Source: Patescibacteria group bacterium (lineage in GTDB: Bacteria > Patescibacteriota > Minisyncoccia > Phycocordibacterales > CAIRYW01). Taken from it: DNA of 64,000 nucleotides. The notes beneath the pieces were generated by a model that worked only from the letters and a program-made list of their open reading frames with translations, did no database searches and was not told the origin of the DNA. Position numbers and translations under genes: made by a program. The DNA lies in the NCBI GenBank assembly GCA_040389185.1, contig JAZKAJ010000007.1, forward strand, positions 5,127 through 69,126, read 5' to 3'. Shown piece after piece: positions 270 through 62,559 of the stretch (the first letter of the stretch is position 1; each line of letters starts with the position of its first letter).

Positions 270-400
270 TAAACACAGTCAAACACTATTTGAAAAGCAC
301 GTTCACCCGTTCACTAACATATTGGTGATTACCCCAATGCTTTCTAAATACAGATTTGTTTATTTTAGAGATAATATTTAATAGGTAGAGTTAGTGTTCG

Positions 401-461
401 GGCAAGTAAAATTCTACTGAATTTTTGCTCAAGTCTCGCCTACCCGGCTCGAAGCCTTTTC
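401..461 (+). repeat. Copy C of a conserved bipartite 3' element: GCAAGUAAAAUUCUACUGAAUUUUUGCUCAAGUCUCGCCUACCCGGCUCGAAGCCUUUUC
   Basis: Near-identical to the minus-sense sequence at 62469-62534, and related to 37496-37563. It has a hairpin AAAUUCUACUGAAUUU followed by the conserved tail GUCUCGCCUACCCGGCUCGAAGCC and a U-run. It lies about 130 nt downstream of the dnaE stop on the same strand. Confidence 0.55.
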
Positions 462-573
462 AAATAATGTTCTCCTATGTTTTGGTGGTGGGAAGTGGAA
501 AAATGCTGGGCAAGGACACAAAGATTGCCTAGCATTTTTATTTATATGATAAAATTATCTAAACCAACCGTAC

Positions 574-1362: not shown

Positions 1363-3114
1363 GAAAACAAAGAAAAAGCAGAAAACTTATCAAAAAAGCG
1401 ACATACTCTCGCCCACCTTTTGGCGGAAGCGGTTATTGAAAATTACCCTAGTGTACAGTTAACTCTCGGCCCAGCGATCGACACAGGATTTTACTACGAT
1501 ATAGACTTTGGTGCTGAGAAGATCTCGGATCAAGACCTCGAAAAGATTGAAAAAACGATGCGAAAAAATCTTTCAAAATGGACAGAATTTTCACATCAAG
1601 AAGTCACTGCAGACGAAGCTAAAGCAGTATTCAAAAACAACTCATACAAAACAGAACTCATTGAGGAGATCTCCGGACGTGGCGAACCGATCACTCTCTA
1701 TACTTGCGGAGGATTCACTGATCTCTGTCGTGGAGGACACTCAGAAAATCCTGCAAAAGAAATCGGCGCTGACTCTTTCAAACTTTCTCGAGTCGCGGGC
1801 GCATACTGGCGAGGTGATGAGAAGAACAAAATGCTTACTCGTATCTACGGACTCGCATTTGATACAAAAGAAGAACTCGTTGCATACGAAACACAACTCG
1901 AAGAAGCAAAGAAACGAGATCACAAAGTTATCGGACGTGAGATGGGACTTTTTACATTCTCTCCTCTTGTTGGAGCAGGGCTTCCACTTTGGACTCCAAA
2001 AGGAACAATTATTCGAGAACTCTTGAATGATTTTGTTTGGGAACTTCGAAAAGTCAAAGGCTACGAAAAAGTATGTATTCCCCATATCACAAAAAGAGAA
2101 CTTTATGACACTTCAGGACATTGGGACAAATATGCAGACGATCTTTTCAAGATTCATACTCGTGAAGACCATCTCTATGCGATGAAGCCAATGAACTGTC
2201 CCCACCACACACAGATCTTTGATGCAGAACCCCGCAGCTACCGAGATATGCCGCAGCGATATGCAGAGACAACAATGGTATATCGAGATGAGCAATCAGG
2301 AGAACTCTCAGGACTTTCTCGAGTGCTTTCTATTACTCAAGATGATGCCCATGTATTTTGCCGTGAGACACAAATCGAAGAAGAGTGTATGGCGGTCTGG
2401 GATATTGTGGAAACTTTTTACAAGACATTTGGATTTGATCTCAAAGTCAGATTCTCAACTCATGACCCGAAAGAAAGAACTAAATATCTAGGCAGTGATG
2501 AAGTCTGGACAAAAGCAGAACTCGCACTCGAAAACTTGATGAAGAAAAAAGGAGTTGAATGGATGGACGGAACAGGCGAAGCAGCGTTTTACGGACCAAA
2601 GATCGACTTCATTGCAAAAGATTCTATCGGCCGGGTACTTCAGGTAGCAACAATCCAGCTCGACTTCAACCAGCCAAAAAACTTTGGACTCGTTTGCACA
2701 AACGAAAAAGGTGAAAAAGAACAGGTGGTGATGATCCACGCAGCGATCATGGGATCAATCGAAAGATTCATGTCGACTTTGATCGAGCACACCGCAGGAG
2801 TATTTCCACTCTGGCTCTCACCTACTCAAGTACGAATCGTTCCTATCGGTGACAATGAAATCGAGTATGCAACAAATCTCAGAAAGACCTTGCGAGAAAA
2901 TGGTATTCGAGCAGATCTCGACCTTGGTAATGATTCATTCGGTAAAAAGATTCGAAATGCTAAAACAGAAAAGATTCCATACATCGCGGTTATCGGTAAA
3001 AAAGAAGTGGAAGCAGGACAAGTCACTCTCGAAGGTAGAACTGAAAAATTTGTCTTGAGTATTGAAGATGTGGTAAAGAAATTGTTTGAAGAGACAAAAA
3101 ACAAAATTAACTAG
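1360..3114 (+). CDS. thrS: threonine--tRNA ligase (short form lacking the N-terminal TGS domain)
   Basis: 584-aa ORF with class II aaRS motifs and ThrRS-specific segments (RDHKVIGREMGLFTF, HAAIMGSIERF) and a C-terminal anticodon-binding domain. Confidence 0.93.
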   Translation: MENKEKAENLSKKRHTLAHLLAEAVIENYPSVQLTLGPAIDTGFYYDIDFGAEKISDQDLEKIEKTMRKNLSKWTEFSHQEVTADEAKAVFKNNSYKTELIEEISGRGEPITLYTCGGFTDLCRGGHSENPAKEIGADSFKLSRVAGAYWRGDEKNKMLTRIYGLAFDTKEELVAYETQLEEAKKRDHKVIGREMGLFTFSPLVGAGLPLWTPKGTIIRELLNDFVWELRKVKGYEKVCIPHITKRELYDTSGHWDKYADDLFKIHTREDHLYAMKPMNCPHHTQIFDAEPRSYRDMPQRYAETTMVYRDEQSGELSGLSRVLSITQDDAHVFCRETQIEEECMAVWDIVETFYKTFGFDLKVRFSTHDPKERTKYLGSDEVWTKAELALENLMKKKGVEWMDGTGEAAFYGPKIDFIAKDSIGRVLQVATIQLDFNQPKNFGLVCTNEKGEKEQVVMIHAAIMGSIERFMSTLIEHTAGVFPLWLSPTQVRIVPIGDNEIEYATNLRKTLRENGIRADLDLGNDSFGKKIRNAKTEKIPYIAVIGKKEVEAGQVTLEGRTEKFVLSIEDVVKKLFEETKNKIN

Positions 3115-3138
3115 GTAGAAAATAAAATTTGAAATTCA

Positions 3139-20966: not shown

Positions 20967-21042
20967 TGGAGCCGCCTCCCAGACTCGAACTGGGGACCCT
21001 CACTTTACAAAAGTGTAGCTCTACCAACTGAGCTAAGGCGGC
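20967..21042 (-). tRNA. tRNA-Thr (anticodon UGU), CCA encoded
   Basis: The reverse complement folds as a canonical cloverleaf: GCCGCCU-UA-GCUC-AGUUGGUA-GAGC-U-ACACU-UUUGUAA-AGUGA-GGGUC-CCCAG-UUCGAGU-CUGGG-AGGCGGC-U-CCA. Confidence 0.85.
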
Positions 21043-31324: not shown

Positions 31325-31395
31325 CTGGGAGACTTGGACTCGAACCAAGATAATATCCTCCAGAGGGATATGTCCTACCATTAGACGATCTCCCA
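31325..31395 (-). tRNA. tRNA-Gln (anticodon CUG), U1-A72, discriminator G73, CCA not encoded
   Basis: The reverse complement folds as UGGGAGA-UC-GUCU-AAUGGUA-GGAC-A-UAUCC-CUCUGGA-GGAUA-UUAU-CUUGG-UUCGAGU-CCAAG-UCUCCCA-G. U1:A72 and G73 are typical Gln identity features. Confidence 0.75.
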
Positions 31396-37333: not shown

Positions 37334-37406
37334 GCCGTCGTAGCTCAGTTGGTAGAGCATGTTCTTGGTATGAACAAGGTCATCGGTTCGATCCCGATCG
37401 ACGGCT
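37334..37406 (+). tRNA. tRNA-Thr (anticodon GGU), CCA not encoded
   Basis: GCCGUCG-UA-GCUC-AGUUGGUA-GAGC-A-UGUUC-UUGGUAU-GAACA-AGGUC-AUCGG-UUCGAUC-CCGAU-CGACGGC-U. Confidence 0.85.
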
Positions 37407-37417
37407 TAGCGAGTGAA

Positions 37418-37455
37418 ATTAGACTGAAAAAAGACAACACCTTCTAGTGTTGTCT
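37418..37455 (+). terminator. Rho-independent terminator AGACAACAC-CUUCUAG-UGUUGUCU + UUUUUUG
   Basis: Perfect 9-bp stem and T-run 12 nt after tRNA-Thr. Confidence 0.65.
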
Positions 37456-37495
37456 TTTTTGTATCAAACATCCCAAACGAAATAAACTATTTCTT

Positions 37496-37563
37496 AAAAA
37501 GACTTCGGAGGCGGGTAGCTGAGACTTGAGGAATTCGCAAGCTTGCGAATATCCGTGCTTTTT
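37496..37563 (-). repeat. Copy A of the conserved bipartite 3' element (minus sense: AAGCACGGAUAUUCGCAAGCUUGCGAAUUCCUCAAGUCUCAGCUACCCGCCUCCGAAGUCUUUUU)
   Basis: Shares the flanks GCACG...AUA and GUCUC.GCUACCCGCCU.CGAAGUCUUUU with copies at 401-461 and 62469-62534. The central hairpin differs in sequence but keeps its pairing. Sits immediately 3' of the minus-strand gene ending at 37574. Confidence 0.55.
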
Positions 37564-37573
37564 AAGAAGTAGT

Positions 37574-38011
37574 TTATGCAGAGAAACTTACCTTATCGTC
37601 CGCATCAAGATAATCAAAAAGAGTTGTCGTTTTAGGATCAAGAGCCAATCTCTCACACTCACCTTGAAACCATTCTTTTTTATTTGGATCAGTCGAATAT
37701 GAAAAATCAGTCTTAAACGCGCTAGACCATTTACTTACTTCATCTGGAGTCTTTGTATCTCCATGAGTCTCTACCCATTTACCAATTTCTTCATCACTTG
37801 CCCCTGTTGCAACAAATGCCTTGAATTCTTCTGCATTAATATTTTTAAATCCAAAAAGAGTTTTGTCGAGTGGGCAATCAAAGTGATATTCTCCGGCAGT
37901 ATCATTTATAACAGCGCGGCATTTATCGATTGTTCTCGCCAAAATTGCAAATCCATTTATCGTTTCATAAGGACTTCGTGGCGCCTCAACAGCCAAATCT
38001 TTTGCTTCCAT
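37574..38011 (-). CDS. hypothetical protein (145 aa), last gene of the PEP-utilizer paralog operon
   Basis: ORF only. No recognisable motif. Confidence 0.45.
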   Translation of the reverse strand: MEAKDLAVEAPRSPYETINGFAILARTIDKCRAVINDTAGEYHFDCPLDKTLFGFKNINAEEFKAFVATGASDEEIGKWVETHGDTKTPDEVSKWSSAFKTDFSYSTDPNKKEWFQGECERLALDPKTTTLFDYLDADDKVSFSA

Positions 38012-62354: not shown

Positions 62355-62468
62355 ATATTTATACTAATTATTAAGTATAGGAATTATAACATATTCAAAC
62401 CGCCCCGTTGCCACGGGGCGGTAGGGCGTTCTGTATTTAAACACTGAAGCGGAGTCAAAGTATTTTTT

Positions 62469-62534
62469 GAAAAGACTTCGCAGGCGGGTAGCCGAGACCG
62501 AGCAAAAATTCAGCAGAATTTTATGCGTGCTTTT
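62469..62534 (-). repeat. Copy B of the conserved bipartite 3' element, immediately 3' of guaA
   Basis: The minus sense AAGCACGCAUAAAAUUCUGCUGAAUUUUUGCUCGGUCUCGGCUACCCGCCUGCGAAGUCUUUUC is nearly identical to plus-sense 401-461. Confidence 0.55.
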
Positions 62535-62559
62535 CAAAATGTACTTTGCGGAGCTTTTT

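Follow-up and report, generated by a model that had tools for sequence, protein, structure and literature searches.

The window analysed here, 64,000 nt of DNA from a Patescibacterium close to Taylorbacteria MAGs, carries three copies (A, B and C) of a short module, each downstream of a gene. The question raised by this locus is whether the module belongs to the transcripts of those genes, as a structured 3′ UTR, a terminator or a source of small RNAs (the original prediction), or is an element in its own right. Patescibacteria account for a large part of bacterial diversity, and their genomes, of ~1 Mb, contain very little repeated DNA. To our knowledge, almost nothing has been learned about their non-coding elements. 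Coordinates are those of the window unless a locus is named. The strand on which the module was first read is called the described strand, and its complement the reverse strand.

Three hairpin copies in the window

A covariance model built from 52 copies from relatives recovered exactly three copies in the window, with everything else at noise level. They were found where the module had been placed before: C at 62463-62541 (minus strand, 92 bits), B at 37490-37569 (minus strand, 81 bits) and A at 391-467 (plus strand, 44 bits). The shared tail, GTCTC..CTACCCG.CT.CGAAG, was beyond chance, with no match in 100 shuffles, and the fuller pattern GTCTC-NN-CTACCCG-N-CT-(N)-CGAAG occurred three times in the window. 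Each copy has the orientation of the gene upstream (dnaE for A, the end of an operon with a DUF5069 gene for B, guaA for C), as had been claimed. Two copies, B and C, are intact, and A has decayed.

The core interval of the module had been drawn correctly; its boundaries had not, since inverted arms of 19-20 nt flank the core in B and C. The CUUUU taken for a terminal U-run is the start of the 3′ arm, paired with AAAAG of the 5′ arm, and there is no terminator tail. B and C had been described as ~90% identical copies on opposite strands 62 kb apart. Such an opposite-strand pair exists, but it is A and C, with 80% identity, while B and C are 76% identical. The parts of the copies and the features around them are listed below; P1 is the stem made by the arms, and P2 and P3 are the hairpins of the core.

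37482-37577, minus strand: copy B, whole hairpin (5′ arm, core and 3′ arm), from its arms, 81 bits and a fold z-score of -3.4
37558-37577, minus strand: 5′ arm of copy B, ATAAACTACTTCTTAAAAAG, with one C.A mismatch at arm position 12
37530-37554, minus strand: P2 hairpin of copy B, GGAUAUUCGCAAGCUUGCGAAUUCC, with a bulged U, from covariation
37510-37520, minus strand: P3 of copy B, short hairpin AGC UACCC GCC, whose middle pair varies among copies
37482-37501, minus strand: 3′ arm of copy B, CTTTTTAAGAAATAGTTTAT, including the former U-run, from arm pairing
62456-62548, minus strand: copy C, whole hairpin, from its arms, 92 bits and a fold z-score of -4.2
62502-62526, minus strand: P2 hairpin of copy C, GCAUAAAAUUCUGCUGAAUUUUUGC, from covariation
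62483-62493, minus strand: P3 hairpin of copy C, GGC UACCC GCC, from covariation
391-467, plus strand: copy A, decayed, 44 bits with a broken P1 and a fold z-score of only -1.1
37427-37460, no strand assigned: terminator outside copy B, an A-tract/stem/T-tract palindrome with 14-nt arms that are 100% complementary
62399-62422, minus strand: GC-rich hairpin downstream of copy C, likely the guaA terminator, from an arm search and its sequence
37334-37406, plus strand: tRNA gene
20970-21042, minus strand: tRNA gene
31325-31395, minus strand: tRNA gene

The 20-nt arms of copy B are 95% complementary, and its 5′ arm contains the TAA stop codon (37576-37574) of the upstream DUF5069 gene. The junction strand CUCAAGUCUC comes before its P3 and UCCGAAGU after it. 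Copy C begins 12 nt past the guaA stop codon (62562-62560); its 19-nt arms (62530-62548 and 62456-62474) are 89% complementary, and weak outer pairing reaches ~62445-62556. The arm pairs of B and C are only ~65% alike, and the differences are compensated. Copy A, ~120 nt downstream of dnaE (the C-terminus of DnaE is near position 270, plus strand), has kept the 3′ half of the core and the upper P2; its 5′ arm is gone and the base of P2 has lost 2 nt. When folding was compared with that of shuffled sequences, B and C were much better (z-scores as listed) and A was not.

The hairpins themselves are not terminators. Past the hairpin foot there was no enrichment of U on either strand: the mean number of T in the 8 nt past the foot was 2.6 on the described strand and 2.5 on the reverse strand, with control counts in the same flanks of 2.8 for T before the foot and 2.7 for A after the foot. 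At copies B and C, a terminator scan returned nothing. An intrinsic terminator was therefore rejected in either orientation. The likeness to one lies in the position of the hairpin after genes and, in the subfamily of the window, in a 3′ arm that begins with CUUUU, but no U-tract follows the stem and separate terminators stand further downstream. Copy B is separated from the tRNA gene at 37334-37406 by the one at 37427-37460, and a terminator-type hairpin at 499-539 is downstream of copy A. Since terminators lie downstream of the copies, the window copies would be transcribed in the 3′ UTRs of guaA and of the last gene of the operon.

The palindromes at 37427-37460, at 499-539 and at 3103-3132 of locus L192 all consist of an A-tract, a stem and a T-tract, and could act bidirectionally. 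The tRNA gene just beyond the terminator after copy B is on the strand opposite to the operon. Rearrangement of this spacer is evident from a 92% relative, L198, in which the same gene is flipped.

No promoter-like (sigma-70-type) site was found near the window copies on either strand. A sigma-70-type promoter of the element's own was rejected on this ground. The TATAAT that one Saccharibacteria subfamily has in its arm is not a general feature. A search of the whole window against Rfam 15 at gathering thresholds returned the three tRNAs only, and permissive scans of copies B and C returned chance-level matches only (E ≥ 0.2, far below threshold). A known RNA family was rejected, with no Rfam 15 match at or near the gathering score.

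Distribution of the element and folding of its core

A scan with an exact 19-base core pattern, one genome per species, gave 67 loci. All but two chance-like matches were in Patescibacteria, in the groups Paceibacterota/Parcubacteria, Taylorbacteria, Vogelbacteria and Saccharibacteria. At least 20 copies were found in one Parcubacteria assembly (J04) and nine in another assembly, and metagenomes held at least 120 further loci. Exact-pattern scans of this kind sample the best-conserved cores only, and most of the sequences are metagenome-assembled. Among 2.9 million viral contigs there was no match, and a phage origin was rejected for this reason. In open-access literature text we found no description of this element in CPR bacteria; it is apparently an undescribed non-coding hairpin repeat of Patescibacteria. 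In one subfamily (L008, L063, L047, L056, L020 and L144) the arms are conserved and carry TATAAT on the described strand and TATGAT on the other. The presence of this TATAAT subfamily in contigs labelled Saccharibacteria and in contigs labelled Paceibacteria suggests either transfer from class to class or mislabelled bins.

The element is a hairpin of 95-190 nt, in which near-perfect arms that vary between copies enclose a core of ~68 nt. Folded as a single strand, the core is a three-way junction closed by the long stem P1. Its parts are P2, which has a bulged U, a joining strand that is rich in pyrimidines and ends in YUC, P3, and the strand U-N-CGAAG-Y. On the described strand, the order is: arm, GAG-Y-AC, P2, CUC with 1-2 further bases, GUCUC, P3 (G-N-C, UACCC, G-N′-C), U-N-CGAAG-Y′-CUC, and the complementary arm. 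P2 consists of G-N-R, the bulged U, a 7-bp upper stem and a loop UGCU, UGGU or UACU; P3 is a 3-bp hairpin with the loop UACCC.

Across 52 distinct copies, 93.4% of the cells were paired and 22 of the 25 pairs had changes on both sides (9 of 10 in P2). The covariation score was 0.69, compared with 0.17 for shuffles and at most 0.26 for slid partners. The middle pair of P3 is G-C, C-G, A-U or U-A in different copies, and RNAalifold, unaided, gave the same three helices. The view of a structured module, with a central hairpin that changes its sequence between copies and keeps its pairing, was thus borne out by real covariation. These compensatory changes are those of a structured single-stranded nucleic acid, either RNA or ssDNA.

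The inner part of P1 is typical of the subfamily, and the outer part is specific to each locus. Ungapped arms range from a few bp to 61 bp and are ~96% Watson-Crick; when internal loops are allowed, the hairpin foot lies 17-45 nt from the core (10th-90th percentile). Divergent cores keep the architecture, with P3 replaced by GGCC-CGAC-GGCC or GCGC-CGUC-GCGC and the 3′ junction strand by UGCGCAAUGC. A second core group (type 2) was found at the following places.

L062, 2567-2646: type 2 core
L059, 1946-2025: type 2 core
L048, 4799-4878: type 2 core
L004, 5367-5446: type 2 core
L053, 7609-7688: type 2 core
L051, 4388-4468: type 2 core
L039, 6428-6508: type 2 core

Type 2 cores are often beside a type 1 copy in the opposite orientation. 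Comparison of the types by eye suggests an extra short helix, 5′ (A)CG with 3′ CG(A), beside an A.G pair and an AA bulge. The only core insertion seen is at L068 (3165-3308, minus strand), where an extra hairpin of ~70 nt stands between P2 and GUCUC. Pairing between the loops of P2 and P3 is unsupported, because the P2 loop varies (UGCU, UGGU, UACU) while the P3 loop is fixed. A sarcin-ricin or kink-turn motif for the P1/junction loop, judged by hand only, had features off the consensus, and we withhold that claim.

The mismatches in the arms are strongly asymmetric. On the described strand, A.C/C.A outnumbered G.T/T.G by 21 to 3 in the genome set and by 52 to 8 in an independent metagenome set. 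With each sequence context counted once, the ratio of A.C to G.T was 60 to 11 (p = 3e-9). Pyrimidine-pyrimidine mismatches exceeded purine-purine ones (40 versus 11), and the unpaired position beside GAG/CUC was U/C or C/U in 138 of 165 copies. Read on the complementary strand, the same mismatches are G.U, G.A and A.G. G.U (or G.T), G.A and A.G are the mismatches best tolerated by RNA helices and by ssDNA hairpins. The reverse strand was also the more stable one in 54 of 66 copies (-54.1 versus -49.0 kcal/mol), with an alifold energy of -31.3 versus -27.9. Wobble pairs in P2 showed no such asymmetry (29 versus 21).

The mismatch asymmetry follows the element's own orientation, also in a genome where orientation to genes is random, so a mutation bias from neighbouring transcription or replication is not the explanation. 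Frequent flipping of the core by recombination between the arms was likewise rejected, because flipping would erase the asymmetry. We conclude that the strand on which the stem folds, as RNA or as ssDNA, is the complement of the one described in the original prediction. This folding strand is the one that transcription less often produces; it conflicts with the 2:1 sense bias reported below and fits no simple model.

Orientation, turnover and the origin of the arms

Orientation was classified for 117 copies with simple (crude) ORF calls. Between co-directional genes, 50 copies were sense and 25 antisense; 29 lay between convergent and 13 between divergent genes. The orientation with the upstream gene, thought to be consistent, is therefore a 2:1 sense bias only, and a fixed orientation, as for a cis-acting 3′ UTR RNA element, was not found. 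The adjacency to gene 3′ ends held well, with at least one gene end touched by 104 of the 117 classified copies. In J04, the best sampled genome, element orientation looks random. Its rpsP-KH-trmD operon has one copy in each orientation. Most copies in Saccharibacteria follow a same-strand gene. The hairpin abuts the stop codon in either orientation, and for 13 of 156 copies a long ORF ends within the hairpin, its stop codon 4-25 nt into an arm. In several spacers a pair of elements differing in type is arranged tail to tail or head to head. Local GC skew, measured over 8 kb and thus a weak proxy, had no link to orientation (36 versus 33 copies); a link to the replication strand as in IS200/IS605 was rejected on these counts.

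Copies have been gained and lost among relatives. The copy after guaA is kept in a relative with 98% identical GuaA (L189) and absent in relatives with 81, 77, 76, 75 and 73% GuaA identity; one of these has a plain terminator at the site and two have no room for the element. In a relative with 88% identity, no element was found in the 51 nt between guaA and the end of the contig. Copy B is absent in a relative with a 92% identical DUF5069 protein and the same neighbouring genes. Three copies in one genome (L003, L049 and L067) have inner arms and cores that are 93-98% identical and flanks that are unrelated. Presence and absence in close relatives, and near-identical copies at unrelated sites, are what defines a mobile or unstable repeat.

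Truncated or rearranged copies also occur (copy A of the window, L028, L035, L066, L096 and L057). In L028 (~5700), L035 (~1150) and L066 (2300-2331), another repeated hairpin, GCCTATCGGTTAGGGATAGGC, seen in two Taylorbacteria genomes, replaces the 5′ arm of truncated copies. A comparison of L096 with L160 shows that P2 was lost when the stretch between a TTCTC in the 5′ arm and a second TTCTC before P3 was deleted; short internal direct repeats thus destabilise the element.

The usual signs of transposition, target-site duplications and conserved terminal repeats, were missing at the copies inspected; in particular, a direct duplication was absent at L053 and at the window copies. An all-against-all comparison of 665 neighbouring ORFs revealed no recurring gene family beside the copies, and a co-travelling gene was rejected because the shared neighbours were only housekeeping genes (LepA, PcrA, SecY, PNPase, RsmE, PilB). 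The genes between two inverted copies encode surface-protein paralogues and a KH-domain protein, not transposases. A phmmer search for Y1 transposases with two approximate query sequences had no match in 4,214 ORFs of ~200 loci, a weak test that covers only parts of genomes. In J04, paralogous secreted proteins that all start with MKTQTTSQIINTIKVI are flanked by element copies (L017, 3317-6255, and L024, 6232-6969), and some J04 copies near secreted-protein paralogues look like recombinants between different arms.

One copy among ~185 is clearly intragenic. An RNase R gene (L053, 2650-2920, identical in L122) contains a complete element in frame, which adds 42 residues at a loop that has five residues in three homologues (L170, L139, L149). 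The sense strand of this gene is the reverse of the described strand. The left outer arm, AAAAACGCAGGCGAAAG, encodes KNAGE, in line with the N-A-G-x-G-E conserved among the homologues. An exact inverted copy of the left arm forms the right outer arm, and conserved F-F codons come next. As the L053 arm is the original coding sequence together with its inverted copy, part of the arm was made by inverted copying of the flank.

A similar conclusion can be drawn from orthologous loci. At one of them (L097, L141 and L171), the core and the inner 9-10 bp are nearly identical, with two substitutions, in the stem and loop of P2. About half of the outer-arm positions differ, yet in every contig the two outer arms pair completely; the flanking sequence beyond them is 80-90% alike. 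Compensated double changes affected 24 arm positions in the seven orthologous pairs compared. The outer arms are remade faster than the flanks diverge. Arms that are purely pre-existing palindromes of the target were rejected, as the arms are partly homologous among copies of one genome; from this homology, the inner arm belongs to the element and only the outer part is local.

The core behaves differently. Orthologous cores had one difference in ~68 nt where the flanks differed by ~20%. Such conservation in place indicates selection on each copy or gene conversion between copies, and in either case something probably recognises the core. It is not predicted by simple selfish decay.

Alternatives and comparison with known repeats

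Our preferred reading, to which we give a probability of about 55%, is a mobile or self-renewing palindromic DNA repeat with a putative partner. The many copies, the sites at gene ends, both orientations, opposite pairs, turnover, decay and an intragenic copy match the dispersed palindromic repeats of other bacteria. Gain and loss, the in-frame copy and the flank-copied arms speak for a repeat at the DNA level and against a dedicated 3′ UTR RNA. The element would spread or be renewed at the DNA level through a folded single-stranded intermediate, the complement of the described strand. The conserved core would be recognised by a putative protein or enzyme. Transcription of neighbours would carry the element along as a long mRNA hairpin, in either orientation and without terminating, and this hairpin could shield the 3′ end or serve as an RNase III target. 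In the mRNAs of guaA and of the operon ending at 37574, a long hairpin is bound to form once the element is transcribed, and a putative effect on 3′-end stability, or through RNase III, is plausible. On a bolder proposal, which seems to us unlikely, the core is a new functional module, for recognition or catalysis, and drives a mode of spread in CPR bacteria that is so far undescribed: a folded single strand, the complement of the described one, would enter the DNA beside gene ends and be sealed by inverted copying of the flank, giving locus-specific palindromes. Otherwise, under the same proposal, the reverse strand would encode a widespread small RNA family specific to CPR bacteria.

Three other explanations have to be weighed against a mobile repeat. 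If the reverse-complement strand encoded a small structured RNA family, transcribed independently of its neighbours, the arm mismatches would be of the right kind (G.U 60, A.G/G.A 27 and A.C 11 on that strand), as would the G.A or A.G beside GAG/CUC in 138 of 165 copies. The purine-rich unpaired strands, the P3 loop GGGUA, which we read as a GNRNA-type pentaloop, the lower folding energy on that strand in 54 of 66 copies and the independence of orientation from neighbours in J04 would fit as well. However, ssDNA hairpins also tolerate G.T and G.A best, so the mismatch spectrum is no proof of RNA, and P2 lacks wobble asymmetry (29 versus 21). Nor is there a promoter-like site by the window copies on either strand or a U-tract past the hairpin on that strand, and a terminator cuts copy B off from its one co-oriented upstream gene, which encodes a tRNA. 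We consider such an RNA family unlikely. An element that acts for each gene in the sense-strand mRNA, as a stabiliser, a processing signal or a source of 3′-derived small RNA, would explain the sense orientation of all three window copies relative to the upstream gene and their position between its stop codon and a terminator, and would agree with the 2:1 sense bias and the same-strand genes before most Saccharibacteria copies. Strong covariation, a core conserved in place and an RNA-like junction (the A.G pair beside the AA bulge, the optional extra hairpin in L068) are also expected of it. Against this, a third of the copies between co-directional genes are antisense and 13 are between divergent genes, copies come and go among close relatives, and one is translated within RNase R on the opposite strand. 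Moreover, the sense-strand arms have A.C six times as often as G.U and almost no G.A, the reverse of what an RNA helix tolerates. This explanation is decidedly unlikely.

Least probable of the three is a host DNA site, in which a hairpin or cruciform core binds a chromosomal protein for nucleoid structure, supercoil relief, replication or recombination, as has been proposed for REP/BIME. Many intergenic copies free in orientation, near-perfect arms (~96% Watson-Crick, up to 61 bp), a core conserved in place and pairs of opposite orientation within one spacer are compatible with such a role. Yet neither covarying P2 and P3 helices nor mismatches that differ by strand would be expected from binding to double-stranded DNA, absences at orthologous sites in close relatives speak against a fixed positional role, and no partner protein is known.

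REP, BIME and REPIN elements of Proteobacteria follow coding regions between co-directional or convergent genes, often in opposite pairs; they sometimes lie within genes, and in transcripts they form hairpins (Di Nocera et al. 2013, PMC3733652). Like them, the present element is a short non-coding palindrome with multiple copies after genes, paired oppositely and sometimes intragenic. REP/BIME elements and REPINs are mobilised by RAYT transposases. Recognition of a folded single strand, as for REP, would fit the mismatch spectrum seen here; no RAYT was found in the approximate-query Y1 search of ORFs at ~200 loci. REP units measure 20-40 bp and carry GTAG or CGTC as a tag at their foot, whereas the present unit is 95-190 nt and has CTAC/GTAG only within the P3 loop, not at the foot. 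Unlike REP, it is conserved inside, in the three-way junction, and variable in the stem.

Integron attC sites and the ends of IS200/IS605, which recombinases read as hairpins of single-stranded DNA, share with it a structure kept above sequence, one active strand and hairpins after genes. The arrangement of attC is reversed, with R and L boxes kept at the foot and a varying middle part, and attC occurs in cassette arrays, unlike the present element. IS200/IS605 insertions follow the replication strand, whereas here no link to GC skew was seen.

ERIC/IRU, Correia, BOX, RUP and SPRITE repeats are MITE-like and are possible targets of RNase III or RNase E, with effects on mRNA stability (PMC10969869). 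They resemble the present element as imperfect palindromes in transcribed intergenic regions in either orientation. MITEs have constant terminal inverted repeats and usually direct target duplications. Here, in contrast, the termini are locus-specific inverted flank copies, the outer arms differ within one genome and between orthologues, and no direct duplication was seen. We know of no IS related to the element.

Among the dispersed palindromic repeats, the Rickettsia palindromic elements (RPE) are an especially close match. They are palindromes of ~100-150 bp in reduced, host-dependent genomes and can sit in frame in genes (PMC10969869). The similar size, the reduced host-dependent genomes, the lack of a transposase of their own and the possible in-frame intragenic copy are common to both. 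RPE are often intragenic with a conserved peptide, while the present element is clearly intragenic in only one of ~185 copies; there is no sequence relation, and the present element has a covarying branched core. It is set apart from REP/BIME, ERIC, Correia and RPE by an asymmetric, branched, covarying core with a variable stem. Its flank-copied outer stem and its spread over deeply separated Patescibacteria are further differences from those repeats.

For annotation, the covariance model lets these elements be masked or labelled rather than called terminators or small RNAs, and the element probably breaks short-read assemblies. Inverted flank copying and a mismatch spectrum that depends on the strand hint at an unusual transaction of DNA or RNA. 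In genomes as small as those of Patescibacteria, many mRNAs gain a long hairpin from the element, gene ends are remodelled by it, and proteins can acquire extra peptides. Its dozens of copies per genome, common to Paceibacteria and Saccharibacteria, imply a conserved partner.
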